Shown here: piece after piece, positions 4,858 through 52,508 of the stretch
Layout of the letters: every line of letters begins with the position of its first letter
Position numbering within the stretch: the stretch's first letter is position 1
Origin: Chiloscyllium plagiosum
Lineage: Eukaryota
Length of the DNA stretch: 64,000 nt
Reading direction: 5' to 3'
NCBI RefSeq assembly: GCF_004010195.1
Contig: NC_057710.1
Coordinates: 106,952,896-107,016,895 of the forward strand
Notes under the pieces: generated by a model
Database searches by the model: none
The model's input: the letters and a program-made list of their open reading frames with translations, nothing else
What the model was told of the DNA's origin: nothing
Translations under genes and position numbers: made by a program

Positions 4858-5108
4858 GGCAACACTTGCTGGAAAAACTCAGTAAGGTGTGGCAGCATCT
4901 GTAGTGAGAAAGCAGAATTAATGTTTCAGATCCAGTGACCCTTCAAGCATAAACATGACTCAATTCCCATTCTGAGGAACAGTCACTGGACCTGATTTAC
5001 TCTTTTACACTCTCTCTCTCTCCATAGATGCTGCCAATCCTGCTGACTTTTCCCAGCAATTTCTGATTTGGTTTCATTTTCAGCATCTGAAGTTCTTTGT
5101 TTTTTTGT
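4858..5108. mobile_element. Fold-back Penelope-derived short element (family C) with degenerate hammerhead motif
   Basis: Inverted arms (ttgctggaaaaactcag..ggcagcatctg / agatgctgcc..ctgactttt..ccagcaa) and ctgaggaacagtcactggacctga. Related copies at ~28050-28135, 31330-31497 and 44795-44885. Confidence 0.6.
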
Positions 5109-6309
5109 TTACAGTCCAGGCAACAACCCAGTGAATCTCACCTGCAACCCCTCGAGTGTAATCACATTGAGTGTCTAGTGTGGAAACCAGAATTACACAT
5201 AGTACTCCAGCTGTGATCTAAATAAAGCTTGATACACAACCTCTCTGTTCTTATAATCTATGCCTCCACTGATAAAGGCAAGTGTCCCAGATGCCTTAAC
5301 TATCCTATTAACCTGCTTTGACACCTTCAGATATCTTTGAACAAACATCCCAAGATCCCTCCGCTCCTCAGCTTTATAGTATTCTACCAAACAATTACTC
5401 CTTTGTTTTGTTACTTCTATCAAATCATCTCTCACTTATCAGGGCTAAATTCCACTTGCTACTGATCAGCCCACATGACCAATCCGTTTATATCTTCCTT
5501 TAATATAAGATCCCCTTCCTCACTTTCAAAAACCCAGTCAATAATTCTGTCATCTGCAAACATACTGATCAAACTCCCCCTCAACACGCTCATCTACATC
5601 ATTTATATACATTGGCATTAATTTGTTAGCATGGATTAGGAATTGCAACTAGGAAGGAGAACAGAACATTATTGGAATAAATGGATCATTCTCAGGTTGG
5701 AAGTCTGTGACTGGTGGGGTATCACTAGTAAGAGTGCTTAGGCCCTAGCTATTCACAATCTATTTTAATGATATGGATGTGAGATCAACATAATATTTCC
5801 AAGTGTGGCAATGACAAAATTAGGGAACACAAGTTGTGAGAAGAATCCAGAAGTTAAGGGATTTTAGACAGGCTAAGTGAGTGGGCAAGCACATGGCAGA
5901 ATCAATGTTGTGTGGAATACTGTGAAGTTATCTGCTTTGCAAGGACAAACAGAAATGCTGAGTATTTCTTAAATGGTAAGAAATTGCCAACTGTTGTTGC
6001 TCAGAAGGGCTTGGCTGTCTTTATTTATATAAGTCATACGCAAATGCAGTAAGCAATTAGGTAGATAAATCAATTTGTTGCTCCAGATTTAAATGCAGGA
6101 ATAAGAAAGCCCTATTCTAGTTCAACAGAGCCTCAGTCAGACCTCATCTCACGTGTGGCTAGTTTTGCTCTCCATATCAAAGGAAGAATATACTTGTTAT
6201 TCAAAGAGTACAACAAAGGTTCACCAGACCACCTCCATTTGCAGCAACAGTAGGAACAGGGAGATCAAGGACCAGGGGGCTGCCAGGAAGGTCAATTTTC
6301 ATCTGAAAT

Positions 6310-8170
6310 CATGAGGTCCAGAAGATTTATCCACAGATTCCCATTTATGTTTTCATTACTTTTTTTAAACTTGTGGAATCAGCGGCCTCCATTTGCACCC
6401 AACTCCAGCTCCTCACAGACCGCGTTAGGAAACTGGAGGAACTTCAGATCATTCAGGAGGTTGAGGAGGTGATAGAGAGGAGTTTATAGGGAGATAGTCA
6501 CTGGGAGATAGGGGGAGGGGGGAGAGAAGAATAGTAGATAGTAGATTCAATTGTAAGGAAGAGACAGAAGATTCTGTGGTCACGAGCTAGACTCCTGGAT
6601 GGTATGTTGTCTCCTGGGTGTCAGGGTCAGGAATATCTTGGATCGAGTTAAGGGGAAGGGTGAGCAGCTAAAAGTCTTGGTACACATCGGTACCAAGGAT
6701 ATAAGTAGGGAAAGGGAGGATGACCTGAAAAAAAGAGTACAGGAGGTTAGACTGGAAGCGAGAAGGCAGGATGAGCAGAGTAGTAATCCCAGGATTGCTA
6801 CTGGTGCCATGTGCTCATGAGGTTAGGAGTAGAGAGTGTGCAGATGAACACGTGGCTGCAGGGCTGTATAGGAGGGAGGGCTTAAAAAAATGTGGATCAT
6901 TGGGATACCTTCTGGGGAAGGTGCGACCTGTACAAGGAGGATGGGTTGCACTTGAACTGGAGGGGCAAAAATATCCTTGGCTGGAAGTTTGCCAGAGCTC
7001 TTCAGGAGGGTTGAAACTAGATTGGCAGAGAGTGGGAACCTGAGCTATGGATCAGATGATGGAGTAGGTAGAGAACAGCCAGATACACATGCAGAGAGTC
7101 TGTGAGGAGGGATAGGCACTCATTGGGGCAATGGTGCAGTCAGTATGATGGGTCGAAGTGTGCCTATTTTAATGCAATTAGTATAGGAATTAAGGGTGAC
7201 AAACTCTGAGCACGGATCAGTTCTTGGAACTTTGATGTTGTGGCCATGATGGAGGCTTGGATATCACAGGGACAGGAATGATTGTTGGATGTTCCAGAGT
7301 TTAGATGTTACAAAGGGTTTTTTTTGCAGGGGGGAGAAGAGTGGCATTGCTAATCAGGGATACGATCACAGCTGCAGAAAGGGCGATTGCCGAGAACGGT
7401 TTCTCTACAGAGTCTATATGGGTGGAAGTCAGCAACAGGAAAGGAGCAGTCACTTTATTGTGAGTTTTCTATAGGCCCCCGAATACCAACCGAGATACGG
7501 AGAGCAGATTGGGAGGCAGATTTTGAAAAGATGCAGGAGTAACAGGGTTTTAATCATGGGTGACTTCAGCTTTCTTAATATTGACTGGAACCTCCTTAGT
7601 TCAAAATAGTTTGGATGGAGCAGTTTGTGTCAGGTGTGTCCAGGAACTGTTCCTGACACATTATGTAGATAGGCTAACTAGACGGGAGGCCATATTGGAT
7701 TTCATGCTTGCCAACAAGCCATGCCAGGTGTCAGATCTCTCAGTGGGACTGCATTTCAGTCAGTGATCACAACTCACTGACCTTTACTGTACTTATGGAG
7801 AGGGATTGGAGCAGATGGTATGGGAAAGTAATTGATTGGGATGAGGGAATTACAATGCTTTTAGGCAGGAACTGAGGGGCCTAAATTGGGAATACATTTC
7901 TCAGGGAAATGCACAACAGAAATGTGGAGGTTGTTTAGGAAGCACCTCCTGATACTGCTAGACAGGTTTGTCCCACTGAGGCAAGGAAGGGATGGGAAGC
8001 TGAAAGAACCTTGAGTGACAAGGTAAGTGGAACATCTAGTCAAGAGGAAGAAGGAAGCTTACTTAAGATTGAGGCGGCAAGGATCAGATAGGGTTCTGCA
8101 GGGTTACAAGGTAGCCAGGAAGGAACTGAAGAATGGACTTAGGAGATCCATAAGGGGCATGAAAAAGCTT
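6310..8170 (+). mobile_element. CR1 LINE: ORF1 (SGNH esterase-like) and ORF2 APE domain, degraded
   Basis: MVCCLLGVRVRNI..VLVHIGTKDI (CR1 ORF1 esterase), then APE motifs (YFNA.SI, W.FDVVA, MGDF). Confidence 0.85.
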
Positions 8171-8171
8171 T

Positions 8172-8625
8172 AGAACAGAACAGAACATTACAGTGCAGTA
8201 CAGGCCCTTCAGCCCTTAAATGGTCAGTGCAACAATCTGAAGCCTATCTATCCTATACCTCTCCATTTTCATCCATATGTTTATCCAATTACTATTTAAA
8301 TTGCCCCCAAAGTTGGTGAATCTACTACTGTTGCAGGCAGGGTGTTCCAAGCCCCTATTACTCTGAGTAAAGAAACAACCTTGGACATCCGTCCTATATC
8401 TATCATCCCTCAATTTAAAACTATGCAACCTTGTGCTCACCATCCTGTGAGGAAAAAGGCTCTCACTATCTCTCCTATGTAATCCTCTGATTATCTTATA
8501 TGTCTCACTTAAGTCACTATCAACCTCCTCCTCTCTAACAAAAACAGCCTCAATTCCCTCACCCTTTCCTGATAAGGCCTTCTCTCCATACCAGGCAACA
8601 TCCTAGTAAATCTCCACTGAACCCC
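8172..8625 (-). mobile_element. CR1 LINE 3' end
   Basis: (agaac)n tail on +; RYRTDVQGCFFTQ on minus. Confidence 0.85.
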
Positions 8626-8629
8626 TACT

Positions 8630-9659: not shown

Positions 9660-9690
<31 letters not shown>

Positions 9691-10920: not shown

Positions 10921-11345
10921 ATCAGACAATAGACAATATAGACAATATGTGCAGGAGTAGGCCATTCTGCCCTTCGAGCCTGCACCACCATTCATTATGA
11001 TCATGGATGATTACCCTCAATCAGTATCCTGTTCCTGCCTTATTTCCATAACCCTTGATTCCACTATCCTTGAGAGCTCTATCCAACTCTTTCTTAAACG
11101 AATCCAGAGACTGGGCCTCCACTGCCCTCTGGGGCAGAGCATTCCACACACCCACCACTCTGGGTGAAGAAGTTTCTCCACATCTCTCTCCTAAATGGCC
11201 TACCTCTTATTTTTAAGCTGTATCCTCTGATTCGGGACTCACCCATCAGTGGAAACATGTTTCCTGCCTCCAGAGTGTCCAATCCTTTAATAATCTTATA
11301 ATCTCAATCAGATCCCCTCTCAGTCTTCTAAACTCAAGGGTATAC

Positions 11346-11904
11346 TGTTTTAAAAAATTCTCAAGGTCAAGGACCAGGCTCGCAGGAAAGTAGTCTGACA
11401 CAGAACAAACAGCCAAGAGGCGAGTCTGCTAGAATATAAGTGTTTTATTCCCCGCAGCGTCGCCACAACCAGTCTCGTACTTACAACGGGTCTGGTTTAT
11501 ACTCACTCTACGTGTTACCGGAACTGGGAGCCGTCAGTTCTCGTAGAGCGGTTGCCAACAACCCACGCTCGGCGGTTAAACGCAACCCCGGAGCAGACTC
11601 TACCGAACTGGAGACTTCCCCAGCTGATATACCCTTTTCCAGATATAAACATTCATGTGAACAGCAGAGCAAGGCTAAAAAACACATTCCATTCTGGTTA
11701 CATACAGATAAGAAGATTCACACGGGAAGGTGTATAATAAGATTCACACGGGACTAAGCGACACCTTCCAGTTTCGGTTAGATTCACACATGTATTGGGA
11801 CACAATTTTAACCCTTTCACCACATTCCACTGCTTGGCCCAATACATGTGTTACATTATGATTCACACATGTATTGGGACATAATTTTTAACCATTTCAC
11901 CACA
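11346..11904 (-). mobile_element. Putative LTR (solo LTR or end of an LTR element)
   Basis: TG...CA ends; minus-strand TATA-like sequence (~11627-11648) upstream of AATAAA (11444-11449); duplicated 44-bp block in the U3-like part; CpG retained; cleanly interrupts a CR1. Confidence 0.6.
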
Positions 11905-11950
11905 NNNNNNNNNNNNNNNNNNNNNNNNNNNNNNNNNNNNNNNNNNNNNN
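11905..11950. other. Assembly gap (N run)
   Basis: 46 Ns. Confidence 1.
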
Positions 11951-14154
11951 GCCTTGTACAGCTGCAGAAGAACCTCTTTGGTTCTATACTCAATCCCTCT
12001 TGTTATGCTATTAGCTTTCTTCACTACCTTCTGTACCTGCATGCTTGCCTTCATTGACTGGTGTACAAGAACACCCAGATCTTTGTACTGCCCCTTTACC
12101 TAACTTGGACTCCATTTAGGTAGTAATCTGCCTTCCTGTTCTTGCCACCAAAGTGGATAACCATACATTTATCCACATTAAACTGCATCTGCCATGCATC
12201 TGACCACTCACCTAACCTGTCCAGGTCACCCTGTAATCTCCTAACATCCTCCTCACATTTCACCCTGCCACCAAACTTTGTATCATCAGCAAATTTGCTA
12301 ATGTTACTATTAATACCATCTTCTATATCATTAATATATATTGTAAAAAGCTGCGGTCCCAGCACTGATCCCTGCGGTACCCCACTGCCATTCCGAAAGG
12401 GAGCCGGTTATCACTACTGTTTCCTGTCAGCCAACCAATTTTCAATCTGAGTTAGTACTTTGCCCCCAATACCATGCGCCCTAATTTTGCTCACTAACCT
12501 ATGTGGGACTTTGTCAAAAGCTTTCTGGAAGTCCAGGTACACTACATCCACTGGATCTCTCTTGTCCATCTTCAGAGTTAAATCCTCAAGGAAATTCTAG
12601 AAGATTAGTCAAGCATGATTTCACCTTCATAAAGCTATCCTGTTACTGCTATCCAGATATGTCATAATTTCATCCTTTATAATTGACTCCAGCATCTTTC
12701 CCACCACTGAGGTCAGACTAACTGGTCTATAATTTCCTGCTTTCTCTCACTCCTTTCTTAAAAAGTGATACAACATTAGCCACCCACCAATCTGCAGGAA
12801 CTGATCCTGAATCTATCGAACTCTGGAAAATAATCACCAACGCATCCACGATTTCTAGAGCCACCTCCTTTAGTACCCTGGGATGTAGACCATCAGGCTC
12901 TGGGGACTTATCAGCCTTCAGACCTAGCAGTCTCTCCAACACCAATTCAGCTGTGATTAGTTGAATGACAGAGTTCAGAAGCTGAAAGGTCTACCCTGCT
13001 CCTAATTTGGAGGTTTCGATGTTAGTGTTTAATTTAGAAGAAAACTTGAAGGTCATTGATTAGCTGCCAATTTGTCACAGAAATAGAAATCTGTTGAGCT
13101 ACAAGTTTATTAACCGAATGCAAATAATAATTCTATGCAAATCAATATCCTGCAGGGATCCAACCTTTTTAAAACTTACACATTTCAGATAGCTTGCAAG
13201 GAATTTTAGAATCTGCAAGTGTACTCAATTGTACTTCTGAAATTAACTTGAATTGGCTTGCGGGTGACCATGATTAAGCATTCTATGCCTGATAACTCAT
13301 GTTATCATTTAAAAACACAGGATTATATTATTACTTTAAGAAAATGGGAAAAATCTTGACCCAAGTGTAAGATCTACAAAACTGAACATTAAGAATCAGT
13401 GGAAGAGTGCAAGAAGCAACATATACTTGGAAATGAGAATGCCAAGGAAAGCTAGGTCAATACAGATGTGCATTGTATCTGAAGGGCAGAGCTTGGGTAC
13501 CTAGCTGCGCACTGATCTCTGCATACATTGATTTGCTCACAGACCCATTACTAATGCACTACTTTGTATGAGTTTGAGTGTATGCTGTAATGACATAGGC
13601 AGTACACATGAAGCAAGCACAATCAGCCCAATTCATCCTACAAAATCTTATTCACTTAATTCTGACAACTTGCACCAAAATTGAGAACTATCCAAAGACT
13701 AGGTGAGCAAGAGATCATCATACTCACCACGATCATATCTTTCAGCATGTCCCACACTCCATCACCCACCAGGTATGCCCTGTTCCACCAGTGATAAAGA
13801 CCCACCACTGAGTGTTTTTGGGAGTTTGAGTATAAACTGCAGAGTTGTTGACACCAAATATTACAAAAAGGGACAATCAGCCCAATCAAGCTTAAAATCC
13901 TGTTCATGCACATCTGGGATCTTGTGTCCATGCAGTCATCAACACTGACTCAGGACTTCATGAACTCTCATGCAGTCAGGTGAACTATGCTCAAGGAAAA
14001 ATCTGACAGATTATAACCTTCCACCCTTTCTTGTCTGATGAACCAATATTCCATTTAAACACAACTGAAAAGGACAAGAACAAAGAATGCACTCTGGATT
14101 AAAAACTTTAGCGACCACAAGAGTGGCTCAGTAGCATCACTACTGACTGAACCA

Positions 14155-14860: not shown

Positions 14861-15600
14861 TTAAAAGATAAAAAAAGACTGCAGATGCTGGAGTCCAAAA
14901 TAGACAGGTAGGAGGGCTGGCAGGACACAGAAGCTAGGCAGCATCAGTGGTCGAGAAGTTGATGTTTCGGGTGAAACTCTTCTTCCGGACTTGGGGGGTG
15001 GTGAAGATGGGATAGGTGAAGACAAGTAGAAAGTATGACCTGGTTGGCCAATGGGAGGAATGAATCCGGTTGGTGGCAGGGAGCAGTGGGAGGGATGGAG
15101 AGGAGCTCAGTGAGCCATAAACTTAGGGAGCAGTTCACTGAACATCACAGCCAGGGCCACAGGGGCTGACTAAACCTCCCAGTCACTGCCCATTTCGATT
15201 CCCCCAACCGCTCCCTTTCCTTGACCTCCCCATTGCCAAAACAAATCACAGCGCAAATTGAGGGAACACCACCTCATCTTCCGCCTGGGCAGCCTACAGC
15301 CCGGAGGATTCAACATGGAGTTCGCCAATTTCAAGTAATCTCCCTCCCTATCCTGACTCCGTTCCAGCCCCTCCCCATCCTTCCATAATTCCCATCATTC
15401 CTGGAATTGACCAACCAGGTCGTATCCTCTACCCGTCTTTACCAATCCCCACTTCACCACCCTGCCCCCCACCTCCCCCGTTATCTGCAGCTTCCCCAAC
15501 ACTTACCCCCAGTCCTGAAGAAGGTTGACACCCAAAACAAACTTCTCCACCTCCTAATGCTGCCTGGCTTGCTATGTTCTTCCAGCCTCCTGTCCACCTT
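14861..15600 (+). mobile_element. Penelope-like element: GIY-YIG C-terminus flanked by inverted pseudo-LTRs (family B)
   Basis: EHHLIFRLGSLQPGGFNMEF (PLE endonuclease tail); inverted arms 14900-15090 vs 15360-15600; direct repeat acaaccaagg at 14851-14860 and 15601-15610 (TSD). Confidence 0.85.
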
Positions 15601-16038: not shown

Positions 16039-16182
<144 letters not shown>

Positions 16183-16627: not shown

Positions 16628-16755
16628 CATAGAGTTAGAGAGATGTACAGCATGGAAATAGACCCTTCAGTCCACCTTGTCTGTGCCGACCAGATATCCG
16701 AACCCAATCCAGTCCCACCTACCAGAACCTGGTCCATGTCCCTCCAAACTCTTCG
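16628..16755 (-). mobile_element. Short CR1/HER1 3' tail in RBPJ intron 2
   Basis: catagagttagagagatgtacagcatggaaatagacccttcagtcc, the same tail as the other copies. Confidence 0.75.
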
Positions 16756-18951: not shown

Positions 18952-19124
18952 TTAAAAATCATAACACCAGGTTTTAAACCAACAGATTTATTTGGAAGCA
19001 ATAGCTGAAGAAGGAGCAGCCTTCTGAAAGCTAGTGCTTCCAAGTAAACCTGTTGGACTATAACCTGGTGTTGTGCGATTTTTAACTTTGCACACCACAG
19101 ACCAACACCAGCACCTCCAAATCA
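18952..19124 (+). mobile_element. Fold-back Penelope-derived mini element (family A) with hammerhead-like core
   Basis: ~55-bp inverted arms (gttaaaaatc..aacaccagg / cctggtgtt..gatttttaac); CTGAAGA 19005-19011 and GAAA 19026-19029; 13-bp TSD ttgcattacatag at 18939-18951 and 19125-19137. Confidence 0.8.
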
Positions 19125-21110: not shown

Positions 21111-21114
21111 GAAA

Positions 21115-26592: not shown

Positions 26593-27568
26593 GCTCTGGG
26601 TATAGTTACTACAGGTACTTGCTTTCTCATGGATGGTTGATTTCAAGTTGCCATTCTGATTTGACTTTGTCAATAGAATGGTCTCTGCAGGCCCGTATTC
26701 AAATCTTTTGCCTGAACAATATAGGTATGCTCAACTGACTGTTTACCTCGTCAAGACAGCACTGCCTTCAAACACCTAAATGGAAACTATTTATTTTGGT
26801 TAGCATACTGCCTCTGTGGGGGAACAAGTTAGCTTTTTTACATACTGTAGTTATCAATAACAGAATTGCCACAAAGTCTTGAAGCCTCAAGCACAAGATA
26901 ACTTTCCCACTGTACTTCAGTTTTTCTGTGCAAGTCTACAACATTAATCTGTTCAGTTGAAACATACAATGTCTTTAATCCAGAATGTACCTACATACAG
27001 CTCAAATTCTCCCAATATTTGGCCAGAACGCTACCTAGTTTTCTCATCCTATGTAGCAATGCAGCTACTTAAGTTGAAGAACAGTTCTTGCACAACAAAA
27101 TTAATGCGCCCTGTTGGTAAACAAAGATATGCAACCCTGAGAAAACCAATGTACATAGCCCTGTCCAACGATTTTAAAGTCTCAGTTAAATACCTGTGAA
27201 GTCAATGGGATGAAACATTCTAAACACGATTTCAGAAGTAAGTTTAGAAAACTTCTCATAGATCCAACTAAGCAAGAGATGTTGCTTCAAAATTGCTGCA
27301 GATTCACGAAAATGTGGTGTGCCAATTCAACAACTTCAATTCCAAACTAGACAGAAGTTTTTCTGATTAAAGCCTGCTCTTCATATCTTGAGCCACATAC
27401 TGTCTACATCCAGTGGTGGCTCATCAATTTCCTCTTTGTGCAGACATCATCTTCAGTTTTGTTTTCTACCAATCCCTCACTTTCCCATTAGGTCGAAGAA
27501 AATAAAATGGCAAAGGATGAAACTGGATTCCACATTACCTCATCAATATACTTAATTTGAACGTCAGA

Positions 27569-27945
27569 GTTAAAATCTCAACACCAGGTTACAGTCCAAC
27601 AGTTTATTTGAAAATACAAGCTTTCGGGGCGTTGGTCCTTCGTCATGTGGCTAGAGGGACAGGATCATAAGACACAATTTATAGTAAAAGATCAGTGTCA
27701 TACAACTGACGCAATGTATTGTAAAAACATAGATTGCTGTTAAATCTTTAACCACTTAGAATGGGAATGAAGGTTACGATTCATTAATATATAAATCCCA
27801 GAACTTCTTTTGTCACAGTCCAAAGCACTAGCTACCTGACGAAGGAGTAGTGCTCCAAAATCTTGTACTTTCAAATAGACCTGTTAGACCTGGTGTTGTG
27901 TGATTTTTAACTTTGTCCACCCCAGTCCAGCACTGGCACCTCCAT
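27569..27945 (+). mobile_element. Family A fold-back Penelope-derived element
   Basis: Inverted arms with hammerhead-like cores on both strands (27620-27648 minus; 27836-27865 plus). Confidence 0.8.
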
Positions 27946-28137
27946 ATTAAATGTCTGAAAAAGTCAGTTCATAAAGGTTAGTTTCATGCCTGCTGTAAGC
28001 ACCTGGCAGAAGCAGCAGTGTCACAGAAATGGGAAAAGAGAAAGAAAAGCAAAATAATGCAGATGTTAGAAATCTGAATTTAAAACAGAAAATACTGGAA
28101 ACACTCGTAGGTGTCAGTCGGTACCTGTGGACAAAAA

Positions 28138-28735
28138 GTTAAAAATCATACAACACCAGGTTATAGTCCATTAGATTTATTTGGAAGTACTAGCTTTTGG
28201 AGCACTGCTCCTTCATCAGGTAAGTATGGAGTAGGATCATAAGACAGTATTTAAAGCAAAAGATTACATTGTCATGAATGCAACTGATACGATATATAGT
28301 AGAGGAACCTTGATTATCCAAACGTCAATTATCTGAACAAGCTCACAAGGTCCTGACGCTTGGCTAAAATGTGTTATCCAGCATTCGATTATCCAAACAA
28401 AATACTCTCCACCCAAGTTGTTCGGATAATCGAGGTTCCTCTGTGTTGAACAAACCTAGATTGCTGTTAAGTGTTTCATCTTTCAGAAAGAGAGTTGCAG
28501 GCTTTGGTTCATTAATATGTAAATTCCAGAACTTCTTTCAAGTCACATTCCCGAGTTACCTTAAGGTTTTATAAAAAAGGCAACATCTCAGCTCAGCCAA
28601 TGCATTAAAGGTTTATGGTTAGAGTCTGTCTGTATCCAAATCTTGAGTCAGACCGGTTCTGTTTCTAAAGTAGAAATTTATGAAATGTATTAGACTGACT
28701 CTAACCTCAACTTTAATGCACTGTCTCAGCTGAGA
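28138..28735 (-). mobile_element. Family A element arm plus internal sequence
   Basis: gttaaaaatcatacaacaccaggttatagtcc..tagcttttggagcactgctccttcatcag; the internal part matches 27650-27820 and 49115-49380. Confidence 0.75.
28299..28443. mobile_element. Tc1/mariner-Tigger-type MITE nested in a family A element
   Basis: ~24-bp TIRs agaggaaccttgattatccaaac / gttcggataatcgaggttcctct, inserted in a TA context. Confidence 0.7.
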
Positions 28736-32910: not shown

Positions 32911-35643
32911 CCCGAGTGATTTCATTACAATCCTAACTTCTACCCTGCAGTTAAATACTACCTTGATATTCCTGTAGCTGCTAGGCATTCGCATTCTAAT
33001 ATTCTACACACATCTGTTGGAACACAAAATAAGTATGGGCAGCTCAGGATCTCATGCTAAGCAAGAAATAACTAATTCTCATTGTTATTTACTTCTAAAG
33101 ATAATTATATAAAACACCCATGATTTTGCACAAATCAAGTGTTGTGTAATATTGAAATTGGAGCATGGTTGTGGTAGTAAACTACTAGTTTGCACTATGC
33201 ATTCAATATTACAGATCTAACTTAGCAGAACACCGATACAGAGAGCTTTTTGTAAAGTGCTGAGGTCATCGCAGCCTCCAGGATGATATCTGCCTTTTTC
33301 TCCCCTGAGAGATTGACTTGCGTAAACTAGAGTGATATCTATGAGTAACAGATGCAACTCAATGTTGACTTGCGGCCCTGCGAACTGGCATCTTAATTTA
33401 CTAAGCAAAAAGTTTAAAACACTGTAGGGAATCTAATCTGATCTACATCTCAGAAGCCCCAGTTGTCATTTCCCTTTCAAATTCAAAAGCCTACAATTCA
33501 ATTTCCCATAAATTAGAAATATATTTCATATTTCCATTTTTTTAATGGAATATAATCTGATAAATTGATATTTTTCAGTCCAAAAACATCAAATTAAATA
33601 ATTTGAATTAAGCAAAGTTACAAAGTGGAAATCAAGTGCACAAATTCAGATCAATTGAACTCTCAATTTGAAGCACAGACTACATTGTTATGATTTATTT
33701 TCAGAGGTCTTTGAAAAGTCTGTAGTTTAACTTCTTTATCCACACACAGGATATCCATTTACATATGACATGGTGACTACACTTGTACTTTTTTTTGTTA
33801 AAAAGTCACTTCATGGTTTCCAATCTGACCACAAATCTTACTAGAGTCTCTCGCAAGCAAAATCATAGTCCAGTCTATGCCAGCCACCAACCCCCATCCT
33901 GACGTCACTACCTTTGTATACAACACCAGGACCGGGGATCATTCCCACAAGAACTGAACTCAAAGTCTTACCCACAAAACCAAGAAAACCAATCTGAGAT
34001 GAACACCCAAGCTTCTGTTTTACTCACTATAAAACAAATACTTAATCCATAACCCATATATCAGACAATAATTATAATCTATGGAAGTCAAATAAATCCA
34101 CCAGTAAAACGTCATAGTCATTTGTAGCACAGAACACAGCCAGTCGCCTTTATGAATCTATATGGAACAATAGAGTCAGTCCCATTCCCCACCTCTATTC
34201 CCACAGATTTACTTTCAGTAAATGGTTAAACCTCAAAATTGATACTTTAATAACTCAATTTACGAGTCTAACTTCCCTTCACCTCTCACTTCCCTCCATT
34301 AAACTTCCAAAAGAAAACCATTCCAGCAATTATCCTCAATGAGTCGATTTTCACATCAACACTTCATTTTGTAACATATATCTCATTTTAAAATAAAAAT
34401 TAAAATAGAGAAATAGATGAACAAAATTAGAAGTGTATATATGTGAAAGTGGATATTCCTTCAATGACACAATGAAATTAGCCTTCTAGACTTCTATAGA
34501 TTGAGATCTAAAGAAACCTTAATCATAATATATTCTATGCTCTGTTGTATTACGTCTACTGGCAATGTGTTAAAATTTGCACATTAATATTCATATATCA
34601 CACTGTTCCTAATGCTCATTAAAATGTTGTTTTTAGTGTAGTTGATAATTTCCAAAGAGTATGCTCTAATTTCCAAAGTTCCTTGATGAAACATTAAAAT
34701 TATTCAATAGAGAAAGGTTGCATTCTAGCAAATTGTGAAACATTAAAAATCAAATAAAGGTTTCTTGACTAAAGCCAGACCTCACTTTGCAGACTCAGTA
34801 AATGACAAAAGAATATCCACAAAGAATATGCGTCTGTTACCAATGTAGATGCTCTAATCATGACACACAAAGTACTCTGAAAAAAAAACTATCTCCACAC
34901 TAACTTAATCTTCTAATAAGTTAGATGCATCAAGACACTACTATAAGCCTTACACGTCTATAACGGATATATTTAAAATAGGCAGCAGTGAGGCAAGAAG
35001 GAATCCTAGCAAAACTGGAATCAGGGGTGCAAACGCTCTACCAGTTTCAGTCATACCTGGCACATAGGAAGATGGTTAAGGTTGCTGGAAGTCAGTCATG
35101 TCAATTCCAGGACATCTTTGATACTTTCGTCAGGCAAGATATTTTCTAATCAACCATATTCAGAGATGTGACTGCACATTTCTGGAGCAGATGAAACTTG
35201 AACCTGGGCCTCGTGGTTCAGAGATTGGCACAAGACCATTGTGTCATGAGAGCCCTGGAGTGCCTCAGGTAATATCCTGGACCTAACCTTTTTCAGCTGC
35301 TTCAATGACCTTCCCTCTCTAAAAAGGTCAGAAGTGGGATGCTCAAGGATTGCCCCAAGTCCAGGCTTGGGCTCAAGAGTGGCAAGTAACAATTGCACCA
35401 CACAAATGCCAGGCAATGACCATCTCTGATAAAACACAATATAACCACCGCTCCTTGACATTTATTAGCCTCACCATCACTATATCCCCCACTAACAACA
35501 TCCTGGGAGTTATCATTGAGCAGAAACTCAACTGGACTCACCACATACTGGTTACAAGTAGTAAGAGGCTAGGAATACTCACCTCCTGACTCCCCAATCC
35601 CTGTTCATCATCTAAAAGCACAAGTCAGGAATGTTGTGAATAT

Positions 35644-36199
35644 ACAAGGTATTCGCAAAAAACGGATATCCTCGCAATTTCATCAACAGAAGCGTAAGGG
35701 AAAGACAACAGAAGGAGGACATGCCGCAACCCAAAGGACTAGCCACACTACCATACATCAAGAACATCTCTGAAATGACAGCCAGACTACTGCGACCACT
35801 AGGACTTATAACAGCACACAAACCAACAGCCACTCTCAGACAACAACTCACCAAAACGAAGGACCCGATACCCAGCATGAGCAAAACTAATGTAGTGTAC
35901 AAAATCCCATGCAAGGACTGCACAAAACACGAAACGACACGAACCACAGCAACGAGCACCCGAGCTACAAATCTTCTCACAAACTTTGATACAGCGGACA
36001 GCTGAAACTGACAACCGGAAGCGGCAGGGACAGACCACTATAAATGCCGGAGGAAACACCACAGAAGCGCTTCACAGGAGGCTCCCAAGCACTGAGGATG
36101 TCACCTCGACAGGGGACGAAACGTTTGCACAAAAACTTGCAGCTCGGCGAACAGAACCACAGCAACGAGCACCCGAGCTACAAATCTTCTCACAAACTT
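35644..36199 (+). mobile_element. Penelope element (RT C-terminus, start of GIY-YIG, direct pseudo-LTR)
   Basis: TLPYIKNISE..HKPTATLRQQL..NVVYKIPCKDC; ~47-bp direct repeat at 35941-35987 and 36154-36200; 12-bp TSD tgttgtgaatat at 35632-35643 and 36200-36211. Confidence 0.92.
36089..36128 (+). ncRNA. Minimal hammerhead ribozyme motif in the Penelope pLTR
   Basis: gca-CTGAGGA-tgtcacctcgacaggggac-GAAA-cgtt-tgc: intact core, helix II gtc/gac + cct/agg, palindromic AACGTT helix III, short helix I gca/tgc. Confidence 0.7.
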
Positions 36200-36479
36200 T
36201 GTTGTGAATATTCCCCACTTGCCTGGGTGAGTGCAGCTCCAACAACATACAAGCTGACAGCTTTCACGATAAATCCGTTTACATCCAATCCCTTCACTCA
36301 GCAGAGCAGTGTGTATACACTGCAGTAATTCACCAAAGATCCTTAAGCACCTTTTATACCCATGACCACTTTCATCTATAAGGCAGCAGATACATGGGAA
36401 CACCACCTGCAGGTTCACTTCCAAGCTACTCACCACCTGACTTGGAAACATATCAGTGTTCCTTCACTGTCACAGGCCT

Positions 36480-38610
36480 TAGAACCAAGCCTGCTGGATT
36501 TTTAACCATTCAAACCAGACTACCCCCTCACTGAGGGATGAACTATCAGTCCTCAGCAAAACGTCTCACCTTCATCCCACTATGCTCCTGGGTCAACGAA
36601 TTCCATATGTGATGTGACATTTAACTTTTCTTCCCCTGCCGCCATGCTTATGTTTTCAATCGTGACTCCCACCCATCCTCAGAGGACCACTTCTCCCATC
36701 TCCAACATACTCCATCCTCTTGAACACCCCATTTGGGCCTCGTACCTTCCCTTGACCTCAGGACAGATTGAGGCAGTCAACCCCTCTCACTCTCGCATCA
36801 TGCAGTCCCCCCCTCTAACTCCAACCTCATCATTAAACCAGGAGCAGCCAGTGGTTCGGTGCACCGACCTCTACAATCGCCGAAACCAGGTGCCAATTCA
36901 CTGACACCTCCTCCCATCGCCCCCTCAACCACACCACCCAGACCATCCACAATCTCTGTTGACCTATTGTCTCTGCCTGCTCCTGCCCAATCTAACTTAT
37001 CTCCTCATATCTCAACACCAACTTGCCCCCATTGGTCCAGGAACTCGCCACATATTTAGGACAGCACCCACACCTGCCACCTCCTCAATGACTTTCATTT
37101 CCCCAATCCCCAACACCTCAGCCTAATCATGGACATCCAGTCCGTTTACATGTCCACCCATCATGGCGAAGGCCTCCAATCCCTCCATTTCTTCCTCTCC
37201 CGTTGACCTAACTAGTACCTGTCCGACACATTTGATTGATATAAGGAGCTTCACCCTCAACAACTTCTCTTTTGAATTCTCCCACTTCCTTCAGATGCCT
37301 ACTTCCTCGTAGGATACTTCGTAGTTGCACTGGCACCACCCCCAACCTTTTCCTCCGCTACACGGATGACTGTAGCGGTGTCATGTCATGCTCCCATGAG
37401 GTTGAATAACTCAACTTCACAAACACCTTCCAGCCCTTCTTGGACCTCTCCATCTGTCTCCAACGACCAACTCACCACATATTTATTTGAAATGCACTGA
37501 CTCCCACAGCTATCTTGACTACACTCCTCCCACCCTCATTCCTGTAAAAATGCAATCCTTTACTCCCAATTCTTGTGCCATATCTACGCCCAGGAGAAGC
37601 AATTCCACTCCAGGATATCTCAGATGGTCTCCTGTTTCAAAGACAGCAATGTCCCCTCCCACAAGATCAACAATGCCCTCCAGTAGTCCTCCACTTCGAA
37701 CACCTCCGCCTTTGAATCTCACCCCTCCAACGGCAAGGATAGACCTTCCACCCCACTAGTCTCCTGATACAATGCATTATGCTCCACCATTTCCAACATC
37801 TATAATCAGACCCCAGCACCAACAATATATTTCCCTCCCGACCCCTATCTGCATCCCACAGAAATCATTCCCTCCATGACTCCCATTAACCCACCCTCCA
37901 CATGCGGCACCTTCCTTTGCCACCGCACAAGATTTAAAACCTGCACCCACACCTTCCCGCTCACTTCTGTCCAAGGCCCCAAAAGGATCTTTCCACATCC
38001 ACCACAGATTTTCCTACACACTCACCCACCTCATCTACCGTCTTCACTGCTCTCAATGTGGTCCTCTCTACACTGATGAGACAGGACACCAACACACAGA
38101 GGGTTTTAGGGAACATCTCTGGGGGGGACACACCAAACAACCCCACCGCCCTGTGGTCAACCACTTGAACTCCCCTCCTTTTCCAAAGGACAAGCAAGCC
38201 CTGGCCTCCTCCACTGTCAAACCAAAGCCACCCACCAAATGAAGGAAGAACACCATGTTCCACCTTGGGGCTCTTCAACCACACGGCATCAGCATCAACT
38301 TCACTAGTTTCCAAATCTCCCCACCTCATCCCAGATCCAACCCTCCAACTCGGCACCACCCCCTTGACTCCATCTTCCTTCCCACATCTGCTCCACTCTC
38401 TTCACTGACATATCACAATTAGCCCCTACTTGCATCCACATATCGCCCTCCCAGCAACCTTACCCCAGTCACAGCCCCACCCCTATATTTATCTCTCAGC
38501 ATCCATTCCCCTTCACATTCCTGATGAACAGCTTATGTCCAAAACATCAACTCTCCTACTCAGATGCTGCCTGACCTGCTGTGCTTTACCAGCACCAAAC
38601 TTTTCAACTA
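36480..38610 (+). mobile_element. Long degraded Penelope-like element (RT + GIY-YIG + family B tail)
   Basis: Decayed MDIQS.Y, NNFSF, FLRYTDD, PFLDL, C..CG.LY.GET and LG.LQP.GI motifs; ends cctgatgaacagcttatgtccaaaac..gatgctgcctgacctgctg. Confidence 0.8.
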
Positions 38611-46839: not shown

Positions 46840-48040
46840 GTATCCTCGTTCGCGAAGGGCGGACGTTAAATGGAACTAGAAAGAAAAACTCCCAGAGGAC
46901 GCAACAGTTTCTGGAGTAATTCCCTGTAGATACCCTGATGCGTACAAGCACGCTTGTTTGCGCCACAGGCGAGTAGCTTCGATTCGCTCGGCTGGGGTTA
47001 ATCCCCAACCAGCTGCGTCCTTTCACCAGGGGAACTGTTAGTCCTGGCGATGCACAGTGAAATAGTGACAGGGCTCAGAGGCGACCATTCACGGGGGGCG
47101 GGGAGAGAGAAACATGGACAAAACAGCCCAATAATGTCAACACTCAAACTACCTTGACCACCGTCAGTGGAATACTAGGAACAGGAGAAAGAAACTGATT
47201 TTTTTTAAATCCCCAAAACACTAGAAAAATAAATCGCTGTCATCAGCAGCGAGAAACAAGGTCTCAGGAGACGAAAAGAGAGGGGAAGGGGGTTGGTGGT
47301 GGTGTCCGACAGCGGATACTCAGCATAATCAAGTCGCAAACAAAGTTGGCCTTTCTGCCTCCTCATTCTCCACCCTGCGGGGGGGGGGGGGGGGGGCGGA
47401 GAACGGTGCATCTTCTGGCCGGGGTCCTCGGGGACAGGGCTCACTCCAAAAGACAAACACCCAAAGGGTCGGGTCGGGTCAGGTCGGGCAGGAGGTGAGC
47501 TGAGGAGCAGTCCCGAGCTGGGCTCAGGACCGGGCCTGTGGAGCCCAGCCGCACTCCCTGTCCTTCCTTCCCCTTCAACACCTCCTCCCACCCAGCTTCC
47601 CTGCGCACTGAGCCAAGCGGCAGCTCCCGGAGCGGAGAGCCCGGCCCCAGCTGACGGCCGACACTCGGGGAGCTGGAGTCACACAAAAAAATACACACAC
47701 ACACACGGAGCAAACAATAGGGACCCCGGGCCGTATGAGCAGCTGCTGACGGCCCGCCGCCGCCACTTGTCGGCCCAGGCCGGCTCCCGTCCTCCACAGC
47801 AGCGGCTCCGGGAGCCGTGGTGGCGAGGCCGGCGCTCGGCAGCGGGCGACGGGCAGCGAGAGCCCTCCAATCGGACACTCACCCTGTCACAACAGGCGCC
47901 ATCTTCCACAAACTCTCAGCCAACTCCAACTCTCGCGAGAATCCGCCCCATCCCTTACATCTCCCTCCCCGTACCCCCACCAACCCACGCGGGGCGGGGC
48001 GGGGCGGGTAGGGGGAAGGAGCATATCTCGCGAGATCTCA
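46840..48040. promoter_or_regulatory. RBPJ: CpG island / RBPJ promoter and first-exon region
   Basis: Only long GC- and CpG-dense segment in an AT-rich, CpG-depleted window, and it contains the RBPJ ATG. GC boxes GGGGCGGGGCGGGGCGGG at ~47991-48008; TCTCGCGAGA at 47931-47940 and 48026-48035; YY1-type CGCCATCTT at 47897-47905; CCAATCGG at 47867-47874. Confidence 0.9.
47883..47902 (-). CDS. RBPJ: RBPJ (CSL/Su(H)) coding exon 1, MAPVVTG isoform
   Basis: Minus strand reads GGAAG-ATG GCG CCT GTT GTG ACA GG|GTGAGT, giving MAPVVT(G) with a good Kozak context and a consensus donor. It lies in a CpG island, and phase 2 joins exon 2 to give the known vertebrate N-terminus MAPVVTGKFGERP. Confidence 0.95.
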
Positions 48041-49030
48041 GAGTGGGAGAAAAGGAGAGTGAGAGAGGTTGGGAATGAGACAGGGGAAGAAAGAGGGAGT
48101 GAGGATGAGGTAGAGAAAGTGACACAGACAGATGAAGGGACTGAGAATGAGATAGAGAGACAATGAGACAGAAAGAGAGGTGGTGACAAAGGCAGACAGT
48201 GAGAATGAAACAGAGAAAGTGAGAGATACTAAGACAATGAGAATAAGAGAGAAGCAGTGAGAAAAGGAGGGGAGATACTGAGTGACAGCAGAATGAGACA
48301 AAGAGAGAGAGAGGTGGACAAAGATGGGAGACATTCAGAATGAGTGAAAGGGACATTGGAAAGAGAGTGATTGTGAGAATAAGATAGGGGGAGACTGAGA
48401 ATAAGAGAAAGAGTAACAGTGAGAATGAGAGAGAGGTAGTAAGAATGAGACTGTGAGGGAAAGATTGAGAAATAGTGAATTGCTCAGAGGATAGATAATG
48501 ATCAACCACATTGTTGTGGGTGTGGATTCACATGTAGGCAAGACTGGTAAGGATAGTACATTATTTCACTAAGGACATTGGTGAATCAGATGGGTTTTCA
48601 TGACAATCTACAGCGGTTTCACGTCATCATGAAGTTCTTAATTCCAAACTTTTGTTTTAGTAAATTAAAATTCTCTATCTGCCATGGTGGAATTTGAATC
48701 TGGGTCCCCATCACATCAACTGGTCTCTTAAATAATAGTCTAGTAATAATAACCACAAGTCCATTGCTTCTCTTAAATAGTGGTAGCGAGAATGGGAGAA
48801 ATAAAGAAAGTGAGAATCACAGAGAAATAGAGACAGTGAGAAAGAGAGAGAAATAGAGATAATGATAGAGAAAAATAAAGACTGTGACAATGAGCAGGAA
48901 AGAGAGAAATAACAGAGAGAAACAAGGTGGGAGAAAAAAAGAGAATCAAGGAGAGAAATAGAAAATGACAGAAATAGAAAGTGAGAAAGAAATAGGGACA
49001 ATAGGAATGAAACAGAGCAATAGCAGCAAT
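48040..49030 (+). repeat. Purine(GA)-rich low-complexity tract upstream of RBPJ, split by a SINE
   Basis: Degenerate gagaatgaga/gagaaataga units; similar tract at 55843-56070. Confidence 0.85.
48495..48775 (-). mobile_element. tRNA-derived SINE (same family as 26265-26592)
   Basis: tcaaccacattg..cacatgtaggc..ggacattggtgaatcagatggg..atctgccatggtggaatttgaa. Confidence 0.8.
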
Positions 49031-49114
49031 GTGAGTGACCAGTGGAATGGCACAAGGATGGTGCTCGGTCCACTACTTTTTGTCATTTATATAAATGATT
49101 TGGATGTGAACATA

Positions 49115-49380
49115 GTTATCTTGAGAATGTGACTTAAAAGAAGTTCTGGGATTTACATGTTAAAGAAACGAAACCAGCAAACCCATTCTAAAAGATGAAA
49201 GACTTTACAATCTAGGGTTGTTCAATATATTATTTCAGCTGCATGAGACTAATCGTTGCTTTAATTTCTGTGTCTTCTCGTCCTGCTTCACAACCACACA
49301 ATGAAGAAACAGCACTTTGAAAGCTAGTGCTTCCAAATAAACCTGTTGGACAATAACCTGGTGTTGTGTGATTTTTAACC
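49115..49380 (+). mobile_element. Family A element, right arm plus internal sequence
   Basis: gaaagctagtgcttccaaataaacctgttgg..cctggtgttgtgtgatttttaac. Confidence 0.75.
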
Positions 49381-49804
49381 TTACGAAATGCTACAACTTG
49401 CCTCATTAATATATAACTTCCTATCTGACGAAATACACCAGCCAAGCTGGACGTCAAGAATTCTGGATGTGTATATTAGAACAGGTACCTGGCTACTTCA
49501 ACTCACCTCTGGTTGTGATGGACCCCCCATGTTGCTCACCATGCAACTCCATTTCAAGGCTTGATCCATATTCACCATGTACTCCTGCATCTTAATACTT
49601 GCCAATCATCATGGTACATCTCTAATTGACTTGCAGGTCACTTAGGAAGCACAAACTTGCATTGCAGGGCATTCCGGCAAGCAGGATTGAAAGATTGTTG
49701 CAAGGGCACTTTGTACACAGGGACAGAAATCCATTTAAGGATTGGACCGGACTGCATTTCAAGTCTGCTTGCTTGCTCTTTTAATAATCATTTAGTAGGT
49801 TCAT

Positions 49805-49968
49805 TCCCAACGTCCCTCCCCCAAATCCCTCCTCCCTACCTTTTATCTCAGCCTGCTTGGCACACCTTCCTCATTCCTGAAGAAGGACTTATGCCCGAAA
49901 CGTCGATTCTCCTGCTCCTTGGATGCTGCCTGACCTGCTGCACTTTTCCAGCAACACATTTTTCAGCA
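49805..49968 (+). mobile_element. Penelope family B tail with near-intact hammerhead motif (49873-49908)
   Basis: CTGAAGA-aggacttatgccc-GAAA-CGTC. Confidence 0.75.
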
Positions 49969-50639
49969 ATAATCATTTCGTGCTTATCTGCACTCTTGCA
50001 GTATCCATGCATTGCATTGCCATGCATGTTAGCAAATTGCTGCTTCAGCCAGAGCCAAAGACTATCAGTATTGCTTTATAAATATTCTCTTATCTGGAGA
50101 GGATTGGAAGGGATGTTGGGGGAAGATTGCTGTTATGAACAATGTACAAAGACATCAATCTAACACCTACAGCACATGCCATTTGCTTGTGTGACAAATG
50201 TCCTGCGTGTTTATTCAACCAAATAGGTGGAGGAAAGTTGGCCGGAGAGGTAACTGTCAGTCAGGGGTTCCCCATACCATTATTAAGGTACACAATCTGT
50301 ACATACTCCAGGGACTTGTTCCCAGTCAGTTAGCCTGTTGTGTTATTCATAGTCAGGGCATCTGTTCGATTACAGTCCAGGGAATGGACAAAGGTCAGTC
50401 ATGTCGGGCCAGCACCACCTGTCAGGGAATTGTATATTGTTTGTTAGGGAGGTAAAATTTATTACGGTTGGTCTCCACATGGGGATGATGGATGGAAATG
50501 GGCTTTTGGGGTAATGTAAGCTGAAAGGGGATAAAGATGGGGGGGTGCAGGGAAGAAGTGACACCGTACTGACTGTATCCATTGTAAGCTGTGTTTCCTA
50601 CGATTGCTTGCCTTTCTCTAGATGCAAAATGCACTGGCA

Positions 50640-52508
50640 AATCAGGGATAGCATAGGGAACTTGTGTGTGGAGTCTGAGGAGGTAGGGGAAGCCCTAAAT
50701 GAGTTTTTTGCTTCTGTCTTTACGAAAGAAATGAACTTTGTAGTGAATGAAACCTTTGAAGAGCAGGTGTGCATGCTGGAATGGATAGAGATAGAAGAAG
50801 CTGATGTGCTGAAAACTTTGTCAAACATTAAAATTGACAAATCGCCAGGCTCGGACCAGATTCGTCCTTGGCTGCTTTGGGAAATGCGATTGCTTCACCA
50901 CTTGTGAACATCTTTGAATCCTCGCTCTCCACTGGAGTCGTACCTGAGGACTGGAGAGAGGCAAATGAATTCCTCTCTTCAAGAAAGGAAATAGGGAATC
51001 CCCGGCAATTACAGACCAGTAAGTCTCACATCTGTCGTCTGCAAGGTGTTAGAAAGGATTCTGAGGGATAGGATTTATGACCATCTGGAAGAGCATGGCT
51101 TGATTAAATGCAGTCAACACGGCTTTGTGAGGGGCTGGTCATGCCTCACAAACCTTATCGAGTTCTTTGAGGAGGTGACTCGAAAAGTTGATGAGGGTCA
51201 AGCGGTGGATGTGGTGTATATGGACTTCAGCAAGGCGTTTAATAAGGTCCTGAAGAAGGGCTTATGCCCAAAACGTCGATTCTCCTGTTCCCTGGATGCT
51301 GCCTGACCTGCTGCGCTGTTCCAGCAACACATTTTCAGCTCTCATCTCACTTTCTCCTTGAAGATTGAATAAGGTTCCCCATGGTCGGCTCATTCAGAAG
51401 GTCAGGAGGAATTGGGATACAGGGGAACTTAGCTGTCTGGATACAGAATTGGCTGGCCAACAGAAGATAGCGAGTGGTAGTGGAAGGAAAATATTCTGCC
51501 TGGAAGTCAGTGGTGAGTGGTGTTCCACAGGGCTCTGTCCTTGGGCCTCTACTGTTTGTAATTTTTATTAATGACTTGGATGAACGGATTGAAGGATGAG
51601 TCAGCAAGTTTGCAAGACGACTCAAAGGTTGGATGTGTCGTTGACAGTATGGAGGCATGCTGTAGGCTGCAGCAGGACATTGACAGGATGCAGAGATGGG
51701 CTGAGAGGTGGCAGATGGAGTTCAACCTGGATAAATGCGAGGTGATGCATTTTGGAAGGTCGAATTTGAAAGCTGAGTACAGAATTAAGGATAGGATTCT
51801 TGGCAGTGTGGAGGAACAGAGGGATCCTGGGGTGCAGGTACATAGATCCCTAAAAACGGCCATCCAAGTGGATAGAGTTGTTAAGAAAGCATATGGTGTT
51901 TTGGCTTTCATTAACAGGGGGATTGAGTTTAAGAGTCGTGAGATCTTGTTGTAGCTCTATAAAACTTTGGTTAGACCGCACTTGGAATACTGCGTCCAGT
52001 TCTGGTCGCCCTATTATTGGAAAGATGTGGATGCTTCGGAGAGGTTTCAGAGGAGGTTTACCAGGATGCTGCTTGGACTGGAGGGCTTATCTTATTGAGA
52101 GAGGTTGACTGAGCTCGGACTTTTTTCATTGGAGAAAAGGAGGAGGAATGGGGACTTAATTTAGGTATACAAGATAATGAGAGGCATAGATAGAGTTGAT
52201 AGCCAGAGACTACTTCCCAGGGCAGAAATGGCTAACACGAGGAGTCATAGTTTTAAGCTGGTTGGAGGAAAGTATAGAGGGGATGTCAGAGGCGGGCTCT
52301 TTACACAGAGAGTTTTGAGAGCATGGAATGCGTTGCCAGCAGCAGTTGTGGAAGCAAGGTCATTGGGGACATTTAAGAGACTGCTGGATATGCATATGGT
52401 CACAGAAATTTGAGGGTGCATGCATGAGGATCAATGGTTGGCACAACATCGTGGGCTGAAGGGCCTGTTCTGTGCTGTACTGTTCTATGTTCTATGCTCT
52501 ATGTTCTA
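50640..52508 (+). mobile_element. 5'-truncated CR1 LINE ORF2 (RT)
   Basis: KSPGSDQI, SQHGFVRG, DFSKAF, WAERWQMEFN, FTQRVLRAWNALP; (tgttcta)n tail. Confidence 0.95.
51249..51367 (+). mobile_element. 119-bp Penelope family B tail inserted in the CR1 RT
   Basis: Begins at cCTGAAGAagggcttatgccc; TSD aataaggt at 51241-51248 and 51368-51375. Confidence 0.85.

Follow-up and report, generated by a model that had tools for sequence, protein, structure and literature searches.

The closest described systems are Penelope-like elements (PLEs) that bear an endonuclease. In Adineta vaga, Pen2a_Av shows 5′ truncation, partial tandems that form pLTRs, and an inverted 5′-truncated copy at the 5′ end (PMC3846280, PMC8557442). 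The same sources describe a 30–40 bp tail at one end only, TSDs of 8–10 bp in Adineta, and a pLTR that contains an initiator-like motif and, together with the tail, overlaps the ORF start. In the Neptune and Nematis clades, a zinc-finger-like motif lies between RT and EN (PMC8557442). In the case of Poseidon of Anolis carolinensis (PAc), the hammerhead is located at the pLTR-ORF junction, the protein nicks and extends both target strands, and RT has two internal start sites, both within the 5′ portion of the ORF, that define the tail; ribozyme cleavage was not required in vitro (Frangieh 2024, PMC11167929). The origin of inverted ends and one-sided tails in PLEs and the role of the hammerhead are still treated as open (PMC8557442, PMC11167929), and the end statistics of the short copies described below bear on these points.

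The DNA analysed here is a 64,000-nt stretch of the Chiloscyllium plagiosum genome (the window), in which a sequence-only reading had described a dense population of non-coding, MITE-looking ribozyme elements. Families A, B, and C were found at the places cited for them, together with a Penelope/Poseidon-type family, P (Table 1). All such elements are dead members of a class already known. Their density in the window is at the level of the genome at large: the 14 hits counted over 63.5 kb, with the element at 14861 entered twice, correspond to 220 insertions/Mb, versus 237/Mb elsewhere (231 insertions in a random sample of 100 pieces of 10 kb, 975,693 bp), which rules out local enrichment. Extrapolation from the 231 insertions in ~976 kb gives about 0.8 million insertions per genome. 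First-look genome-wide candidates numbered 2428 (A), 1772 (B), 4016 (C), and 4055 (P). Five window elements are fold-backs (4866, 14861, 18952, 27565, and 31335), as the description of inverted arms had it. The TSDs of 8–13 bp assigned to such arms were recovered in part: the repeat at 18952 is 13 bp long, those at 14861 and 4858 measure 16 bp and 7 bp, and none was found at 27565 or 31335. TSDs of three unfolded copies are included in the table. Two of the elements are not non-coding, since the copy at 14861–15600 retains a GIY-YIG C-terminal remnant and the one at 38520 is the end of an RT-zinc finger-GIY-YIG remnant starting at 37060. A Pfam search with two short window peptides gave no match.

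Table 1. PLE-derived elements identified in the window (positions of the window; intact or altered boxes refer to the hammerhead core).
Positions	Strand	Element	Features
4866..5106		Family C fold-back	Minus arm 4866-4944 untailed, plus arm 4970-5106 tailed; CTGAGGA at 4972, GAAA box lost; flanking repeat only 7 bp
14861..15600		Old B/C-related 5′-truncated PLE, inverted 5′ arm	Neither core intact; GIY-YIG C-terminal remnant 15231-15332; 16-bp TSD, 1 mismatch (14845, 15595)
18952..19124		Family A fold-back	Plus arm begins at core (19005), which keeps both boxes; damage in helix II; 13-bp TSD
27565..27947		Family A fold-back	Minus arm to -182, plus arm from -2; both cores changed; no TSD found
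28041..28138	minus	Family C arm, tailed	Start ~+37, without core
28135..28565	minus	Family A copy	To -192; break ~28335-28445; GAAA box is AAAA
31335..31496		Family C fold-back, decayed	Core not intact; TSD not found
35640..36200	plus	Family P Penelope/Poseidon-type copy	RT-thumb end and EN start; internal 48-bp duplication; intact core 36092; 14-bp TSD, 1 mismatch
37060..38609	plus	Decayed long PLE	RT, thumb, zinc-finger linker, GIY-YIG, then family B terminus; core at 38521, GAAA box is AAAA
44774..44887	minus	Family C arm	69% identity to consensus; first core box lost
49114..49382	plus	Family A copy	To -188; untailed; first core box changed
49802..49967	plus	Family B copy	From -75, untailed; both boxes intact at 49877; one helix II mismatch; 14-bp TSD, 1 mismatch
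51249..51364	plus	Family B stub	Begins at core edge; GAAA box is AAAA; 11-bp TSD, 1 mismatch; 3′ end a few bases beyond usual tail, into body-like sequence

The family consensus sequences contain the proposed minimal hammerhead with a palindromic helix III. They read CTGAnGA-N-helix II-GAAA-(GC/CG)-T-H and show the core boxes, the extra base after A9, the palindromic positions 15.2–16.2, and the NUH of a minimal type I hammerhead. The published minimal PLE hammerheads share with them the CUGANGA and GAAA boxes, the extra nucleotide between 9 and 10.1, the G10.1-C11.1 pair, a short helix I, and the palindromic positions, and they are likewise mostly single motifs from truncated PLEs; opposite-strand pairs 100–700 bp apart are already noted in that description. 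In contrast to them, loop III of family A has GC instead of CG and the triplet of this family is CUA, and helix I of most B copies includes a U-U pair. The shark families are not named in the searched sections and two supplementary files of that publication. In the window, only 3 of the 13 cited sites (19005, 36092, and 49877) keep both boxes, and the other 10 have lost or altered them. The bare motif pattern is not above chance in the window (10 occurrences versus 7.0 ± 2.7 expected), and an Rfam search of the window returned 10 matches at E ≤ 5, none of them a hammerhead family. Among sampled arms, targeted loci included, both boxes are intact in 67/107 (A), 121/163 (B), 38/105 (C), and 36/41 (P).

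Helices I and II are supported by covariation. Helix sequences differ between the four families and the pairing is kept. Within families, double changes from G-C to A-T were observed at pair 9/18 of B (7 arms, Fisher 2.7e-9), 9/20 of C (9 arms, Fisher 0.002), and 10/18 of A (2 arms, Fisher 0.002), with the remaining pairs mostly uninformative and the arms not independent of each other. Minimum-energy folding of monomers gave no hammerhead fold beyond helix II in A, which is expected for minimal motifs.

All three families adjoin a PLE ORF upstream, in agreement with the PLE origin given to them. A, B, and C run into GIY-YIG, and B and P also into RT, which marks the first three families as truncated ends of coding PLEs. 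The family B parent contains RT (Pfam RVT_1, 3.5e-8), a zinc-finger linker, and GIY-YIG (0.01, below the Pfam cut-off), in that order; for P, RVT_1 was detected at 2.9e-6 and EN was recognised by translation. In both B and P, RT is followed by a C-terminal GIY-YIG in one ORF that lies upstream of the terminal motif. Continuity with the ORF was seen for family A at three loci (L113, L122, and L124; blastp to the B nuclease, 4e-20) and for family C at two (L156 and L168; tblastn, 1.9e-8). In A and C the sequence reached covers the nuclease and the linker, with the RT core outside it; two longer stretches beside A or C termini showed no RT. Pfam had no match for the nuclease fragments of A and C or for the N-terminus of B, and for this reason they were assigned by motifs and blast to the B nuclease. 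A Cys-x4-Cys-x2-Cys linker is present in the B and A translations and absent from P. By this zinc-finger linker, which they have in common with Neptune/Nematis, the A and B parents would be of Neptune type. PAc, in contrast, is of the same Penelope/Poseidon clade as P.

The layout of the shark insertions is that of published PLEs, with an inverted arm, a one-sided tail, and a TSD (PMC3846280, PMC8557442). Each family has fixed 3′ ends and ragged 5′ ends that form ladders into the ORFs. The 3′ ends cluster at ~+81–85 and +120 (A), +80–94 and +124 (B), and +91–111 and +127–134 (C), and the two fixed ends, ~35–40 nt apart, correspond to the PLE tail, an optional 30–40 bp extension of the fixed 3′ end. 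A partial tandem was found at L361, where EN is followed by the B motif and tail, then the ORF N-terminus, RT, and a 3′ B terminus. At L287, L290, and L292, the B tail continues into the ORF, and L290 and L287 start with the motif. In family B, the stretch at the hammerhead edge also opens the element body, a junction seen in this family only. An inverted 5′ copy is present in 79/231 sampled insertions, counted as fold-backs.

These data make it quite probable that A, B, and C are end pieces of three coding PLE families, likely dead ends made anew when the enzyme of the parent element copied just the first 85–135 bases of the parental RNA. A separate family of ribozyme mini-elements is not supported. 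The earlier picture of a non-autonomous, MITE-like family moved as units is likewise not supported, given the ORF continuity, the ragged 5′ ends next to fixed 3′ ends, and the near-uniqueness of the junctions. Retrotransposition with TSDs of variable length was confirmed, and no sign of a DDE partner was seen. Genome-wide TSD lengths are 8–19 bp (14–17 bp in 38/62), and the fixed-length TSDs that would mark a DNA transposon are absent. These lengths, and arm ends that differ in 66/76, do not fit a MITE with its equal terminal inverted repeats. A TSD score of at least 7 was reached by 43/79 fold-backs, 19/152 solo copies, and 0/200 controls; for most sampled solo copies, TSDs were not found. 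A TSD is evidence of a single insertion event, not of copying from an earlier mini-element. For annotation, ~0.8 million MITE- or SINE-looking insertions would be PLE ends and belong filed with their parents.

The 5′ ends of the A, B, and C arms pile up at the edge of the hammerhead. Starts within -15..+14 were counted in 29/46 (A), 92/162 (B), and 41/76 (C) sampled arms, i.e., 54–63% start no more than 15 nt from its 5′ edge, and in 1/18 for P, alignment-based starts being blurred by junction palindromes. Among young arms only, the counts were 35/56 (B) and 16/28 (A). A stop exactly at -4 was recorded for 14/46 in the first count, a figure raised in part by older subfamilies whose upstream sequence differs, and none of 66 short solo copies has upstream sequence in common with another copy. 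The base before -4 was G 4, A 3, T 7 in a first set, G in 3/4 solo copies of a random set, and G 2, T 11 in a pooled set, a count confounded by long, older subfamilies. These three sets do not establish an extra G from cap copying, and the exact stop base is therefore uncertain. A splice acceptor at this boundary was rejected: family C does show CAG and a pyrimidine tract at this point, yet its arms often retain those bases, and B lacks an AG in the same position. The pile-up is absent from the passages on PLE layout in PMC3846280 and PMC8557442, and the PAc paper treats neither it nor fold-back stubs (PMC11167929).

Self-cleavage by the hammerhead could supply RNA with a new 5′ end, and 12/284 A/B/C arms do start near the predicted cut at +24..+34 (A 3, B 5, C 4; P 0). 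However, 162/284 arms begin ~30 nt upstream of that point and retain the core entirely or for the most part, and insertion needed no cleavage in PMC11167929, which makes self-cleavage a very improbable origin of the short copies and excludes it as the main source of 5′ ends. Dead-end copies might also arise if RT stalled or dropped off at a folded hammerhead in the 3′ terminal repeat, with fold-backs formed by cDNA snap-back on the helix II palindrome. In each of A, B, and C, the boundary does fall on the 5′ strand of helix I, several junctions fall in helix II or nearby palindromes, and Arkhipova et al. interpret junction palindromes as self-priming (PMC3846280). In family P, helix II is longer, yet there is no pile-up. 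Snap-back alone copies the same cDNA and fails to give two different fixed arm ends, as in 66/76, with the tail on either arm; moreover, many junctions contain non-palindromic filler. We regard this explanation as rather unlikely.

The A/B/C stubs likely represent cDNAs that ran off the RNA at its 5′ end. In such a scheme, the GIY-YIG nuclease would nick both target strands ~12–17 nt apart, and RT would begin at one of two internal sites. Using the site copy near the RNA 5′ end, it would run off at that end, which is probably a transcription start at an initiator-like motif just before helix I. If both nicked strands were extended, one per start site, the cDNAs might join head to head, giving a fold-back with one tailed arm; exactly one arm is tailed in 66/76 A/B/C fold-backs, and 71/138 solo copies are tailed. 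The hammerhead would be an uncut passenger of the parent's terminus. PAc and the shark families are alike in having the hammerhead at the pLTR-ORF junction and, as proposed here, two internal start sites that define the tail and the nicking and extension of both target strands. That hundreds of thousands of stubs correspond in PLEs to the strong-stop DNA of retroviruses, as complete run-off copies from the two RT sites to a transcription start at the first base of helix I with both nicked strands primed at once, one per site, is a tentative proposal to which we give slightly less than an even chance. If true, the stubs would be a genome-scale record of PLE insertion and would show that the copied RNA is not cut by its own ribozyme. 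The end statistics predict that transcription starts near -4, that one arm carries a tail and the other does not, and that the template is uncut.

We also weighed whether the short and fold-back copies propagate themselves as SINE-, MITE-, or retrozyme-like non-autonomous elements, whose transcripts, perhaps after cleavage by dimeric hammerheads, would be reproduced whole by PLE proteins. A near-identical 5′ boundary is common to more than half of the arms, and pLTR sequences are enough for mobilisation in trans in Adineta (PMC3846280). Three junction signatures recur (in 7/68 elements), two of them perhaps as copies of each other. Nevertheless, 64 signatures are distinct among 68 fold-backs, and one repeated junction must have arisen more than once because it was found in two subfamilies with different helix II loops. 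Ladders into ORFs, subfamily markers common to short and longer copies (inspected by eye), and a core retained where cleavage would remove it also speak against a short master. Fold-backs look to be made afresh at each insertion. PLE-derived non-LTR retrozymes have been reported from one chondrichthyan; like the shark copies, they are non-coding, hammerhead-bearing, and pLTR-related (bioRxiv 10.64898/2026.07.22.740005). They are head-to-tail tandems with a hammerhead per unit, whereas the window and sampled shark copies are dispersed; their arms stand singly or head to head and have TSDs and PLE tails. RNA reads matched the motif in one run (3432 reads) and not in the other (0); they cover both strands, as self-propagation would allow, but 93% of them continue into unrelated sequence, as expected of embedded copies. 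No transcription start was obtained from the two runs, in which embedded copies dominate. Taken as a whole, self-propagation is improbable, and a minor self-propagating fraction may be present among the copies.

In comparison with Adineta PLEs, the shark copies are mostly 85–135 nt per arm, their TSDs are longer, mostly 12–17 bp, and their number reaches the extrapolated ~0.8 million. Separately, one short tandem of family A arms was observed at locus L007.

A search of the 3.56-Gb genome gave thousands of first-look candidates for each of the short hammerhead-bearing repeat families A, B and C, and likewise for P, a Penelope/Poseidon-type coding copy. Copies of the three families were also confirmed in the window, so that their existence, claimed in the sequence-only reading, is established. 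All four are genuine repeats and belong to the already known class of Penelope-like elements (PLEs). Position numbers such as -4 or +124 take as their origin the C that opens the first hammerhead box, CTGA. In each consensus, CTGAnGA and one extra base are followed by helix II, GAAA, a palindrome of two bases and T-H, and helix I is 3-4 bp long; this is the minimal hammerhead type already described for PLE terminal repeats (PMC4209133, available excerpt). The helix sequences of A, B, C and P are unlike one another, yet all pair. Covariation of helix II was found as a G-C to A-T double change at one pair within families (7 arms, or PLE-end copies, in B, 9 in C and 2 in A, the arms being non-independent). 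The hammerheads that had been claimed thus hold for the consensi, with their core and paired helix II, but only 3 of 13 window sites keep both core boxes. The bare pattern showed no excess in the window (10 against 7.0 by chance), and hammerheads were absent from the matches of an Rfam search of the window. Helix I contains a U-U pair in the majority of B copies. In a young B subfamily (L068, L138, L178 and L183) the 4-bp helix I is fully paired and the helix II loop is different; this subfamily would be best suited to an assay of cleavage. Despite differing hammerheads, B and C have in common two conserved blocks 3' of the core (+45 to +110), possibly a signal for protein binding or for the start of reverse transcriptase (RT).

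In every family, the 3' ends are fixed and the 5' ends ragged. Upstream of the B terminus we found a GIY-YIG nuclease, a cysteine linker and RT (Pfam RVT_1, 3.5e-8; GIY-YIG, 0.01). A long CA-rich untranslated region precedes the A terminus, and beyond it lie a nuclease and linker related to those of B (blastp, 4e-20), whereas upstream of C there is a nuclease remnant (tblastn, 1.9e-8). Coding PLEs with the same termini therefore exist, the A and C parents being traced to these parts, short of the RT core. The claim of PLE-derived, non-coding elements was right as to origin and too broad as to coding, since the elements at 14861-15600 and 38520 hold coding remnants. In the A parent (L113, L122, L124, L127 and L132), the 3' untranslated region contains a CA-rich minisatellite and spans about 700-800 nt from the nuclease stop to the hammerhead. 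The cysteine linker marks Neptune and Nematis (PMC8557442, available excerpt), and the A and B parents, which share it, are provisionally placed with these clades by it; P, without linker, is classed from its sequence as Penelope/Poseidon-like. At three loci (L287, L290 and L292), the ORF N-terminus directly follows the B motif and tail, the tail being the optional 3' extension between two fixed 3' ends about 35-40 nt apart. L361 is a partial tandem in which nuclease, motif, ORF and RT succeed one another up to a 3' terminus. Consequently, the B stub sequence is insertion end and element-body start alike, as in Adineta Pen2a (PMC3846280, available excerpt) and anole Poseidon, PAc (PMC11167929). 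Loci L276 and L277, on different contigs, are identical over about 1 kb across the PLE junction and flank, likely by segmental or assembly duplication.

To determine density, 10-kb stretches were taken at 100 round-number positions on large contigs (975,693 non-N bases). They contained 231 insertions (237/Mb), compared with 14 counted in the window (220/Mb, the 14861 element entering twice), so the window is ordinary and not, as had been proposed, densely populated. Extrapolation from the sample gives about 0.8 million insertions genome-wide. Head-to-head pairs (fold-backs) made up 79 of the 231. The tail was on exactly one arm in 66 of 76 A/B/C fold-backs, on neither in 6 and on both in 4; 71 of 138 solo copies were tailed. 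Target-site duplications (TSDs) with a score of at least 7 flanked 43/79 fold-backs, 19/152 solo copies and 0/200 control intervals, with lengths of 8-19 bp, and the first 40 stretches agreed with the full sample on fold-backs and TSDs. The sampled fold-backs match the published PLE layout, in which the 5' copy is inverted, the tail sits on one side and a TSD is present (PMC3846280 and PMC8557442, available excerpts). Inverted arms with TSDs had been claimed for the window; its five fold-backs bear out the arms, but TSDs are clear in two (16 and 13 bp), one has a 7-bp repeat, and none was found at the other two. Three unfolded window copies have TSDs of 11-14 bp.

Non-autonomous elements moving as units, as that reading had it, would share the junction of a fold-back master if copied from one. 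However, 68 fold-backs with adjacent arms had 64 junction signatures; three were repeated, one of them across two subfamilies. As nearly all junctions differ, the fold-backs most likely arose at each insertion. PLE origin and consensus hammerheads stand, but self-propagation is improbable; the short copies are probably dead-end PLE ends, made anew.

Arm starts fell within -15 to +14 in 29/46 A, 92/162 B, 41/76 C and 1/18 P arms, and near the predicted cut (+24 to +34) in 3, 5, 4 and 0. Young arms keep the pile-up (B 35/56, A 16/28), and hidden shared upstream sequence was found in 0/66 short solo copies. The boundary lies at TCATTC in B and TCAGTT in C, which we take to be initiator-like, the A of the motif being -4, the first base of helix I. 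Three results count against a transcription start there: older subfamilies confound the number of stops exactly at -4, among copy 5' ends no cap-derived extra G was demonstrated ahead of -4, and the RNA reads did not reveal the start site. The main rival explanation for the boundary is RT stalling at the folded motif, then snap-back. Drosophila Penelope has a promoter within its repeat (PMC2377424, available excerpt). In vitro, PAc nicks and extends both target strands and inserts without need for ribozyme cleavage; its RT starts at two internal sites, which lie toward the 5' part of the ORF (PMC11167929). On the run-off reading, RT would start at the site copy closest to the RNA 5' end and yield a cDNA of 85-135 nt; priming at both nicks, one per start site, would give a fold-back with a single tail, and the nick stagger would give the TSD. 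We regard this full model of run-off and two-strand priming as tentative, its chance a little under even.

Hammerheads of PLEs had been reported by 2014, along with pairs on opposite strands and truncated single motifs, and the available part of a preprint describes PLE-derived tandem retrozymes with one chondrichthyan among the hosts (bioRxiv 2026.07.22.740005). A search of mainly open-access papers found nothing on shark PLE stubs or a hammerhead 5' pile-up, and 'strong-stop' and 'twin priming' occurred in none of the papers it listed; the available part of PMC6155905 added nothing on sharks.

Table. Coding remnants and neighbouring features in the window
Position	Feature	Remarks
14861-15600	Element	Nuclease remnant inside
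38520	Terminus	Closes RT-linker-nuclease remnant beginning at 37060
28299-28445	Short insertion breaking a family A copy	Inverted ends 28301-28323 / 28420-28442, 91% complementary; looks like a small DNA-transposon derivative
50600-52030	Long LINE-like RT-coding remnant, presumably CR1/L2 type	Host of family B stub inserted at 51249
3500-4850, 10900-12950	Copies related to the 50600-52030 remnant	
3519-4846 / 10938-12948	LINE-like pair, inverted	92-99% identical, 6-9 kb apart, assembly gap in each
47379-48020	GC-rich; possible CpG island or promoter	Weak Rfam matches there 76-83% GC
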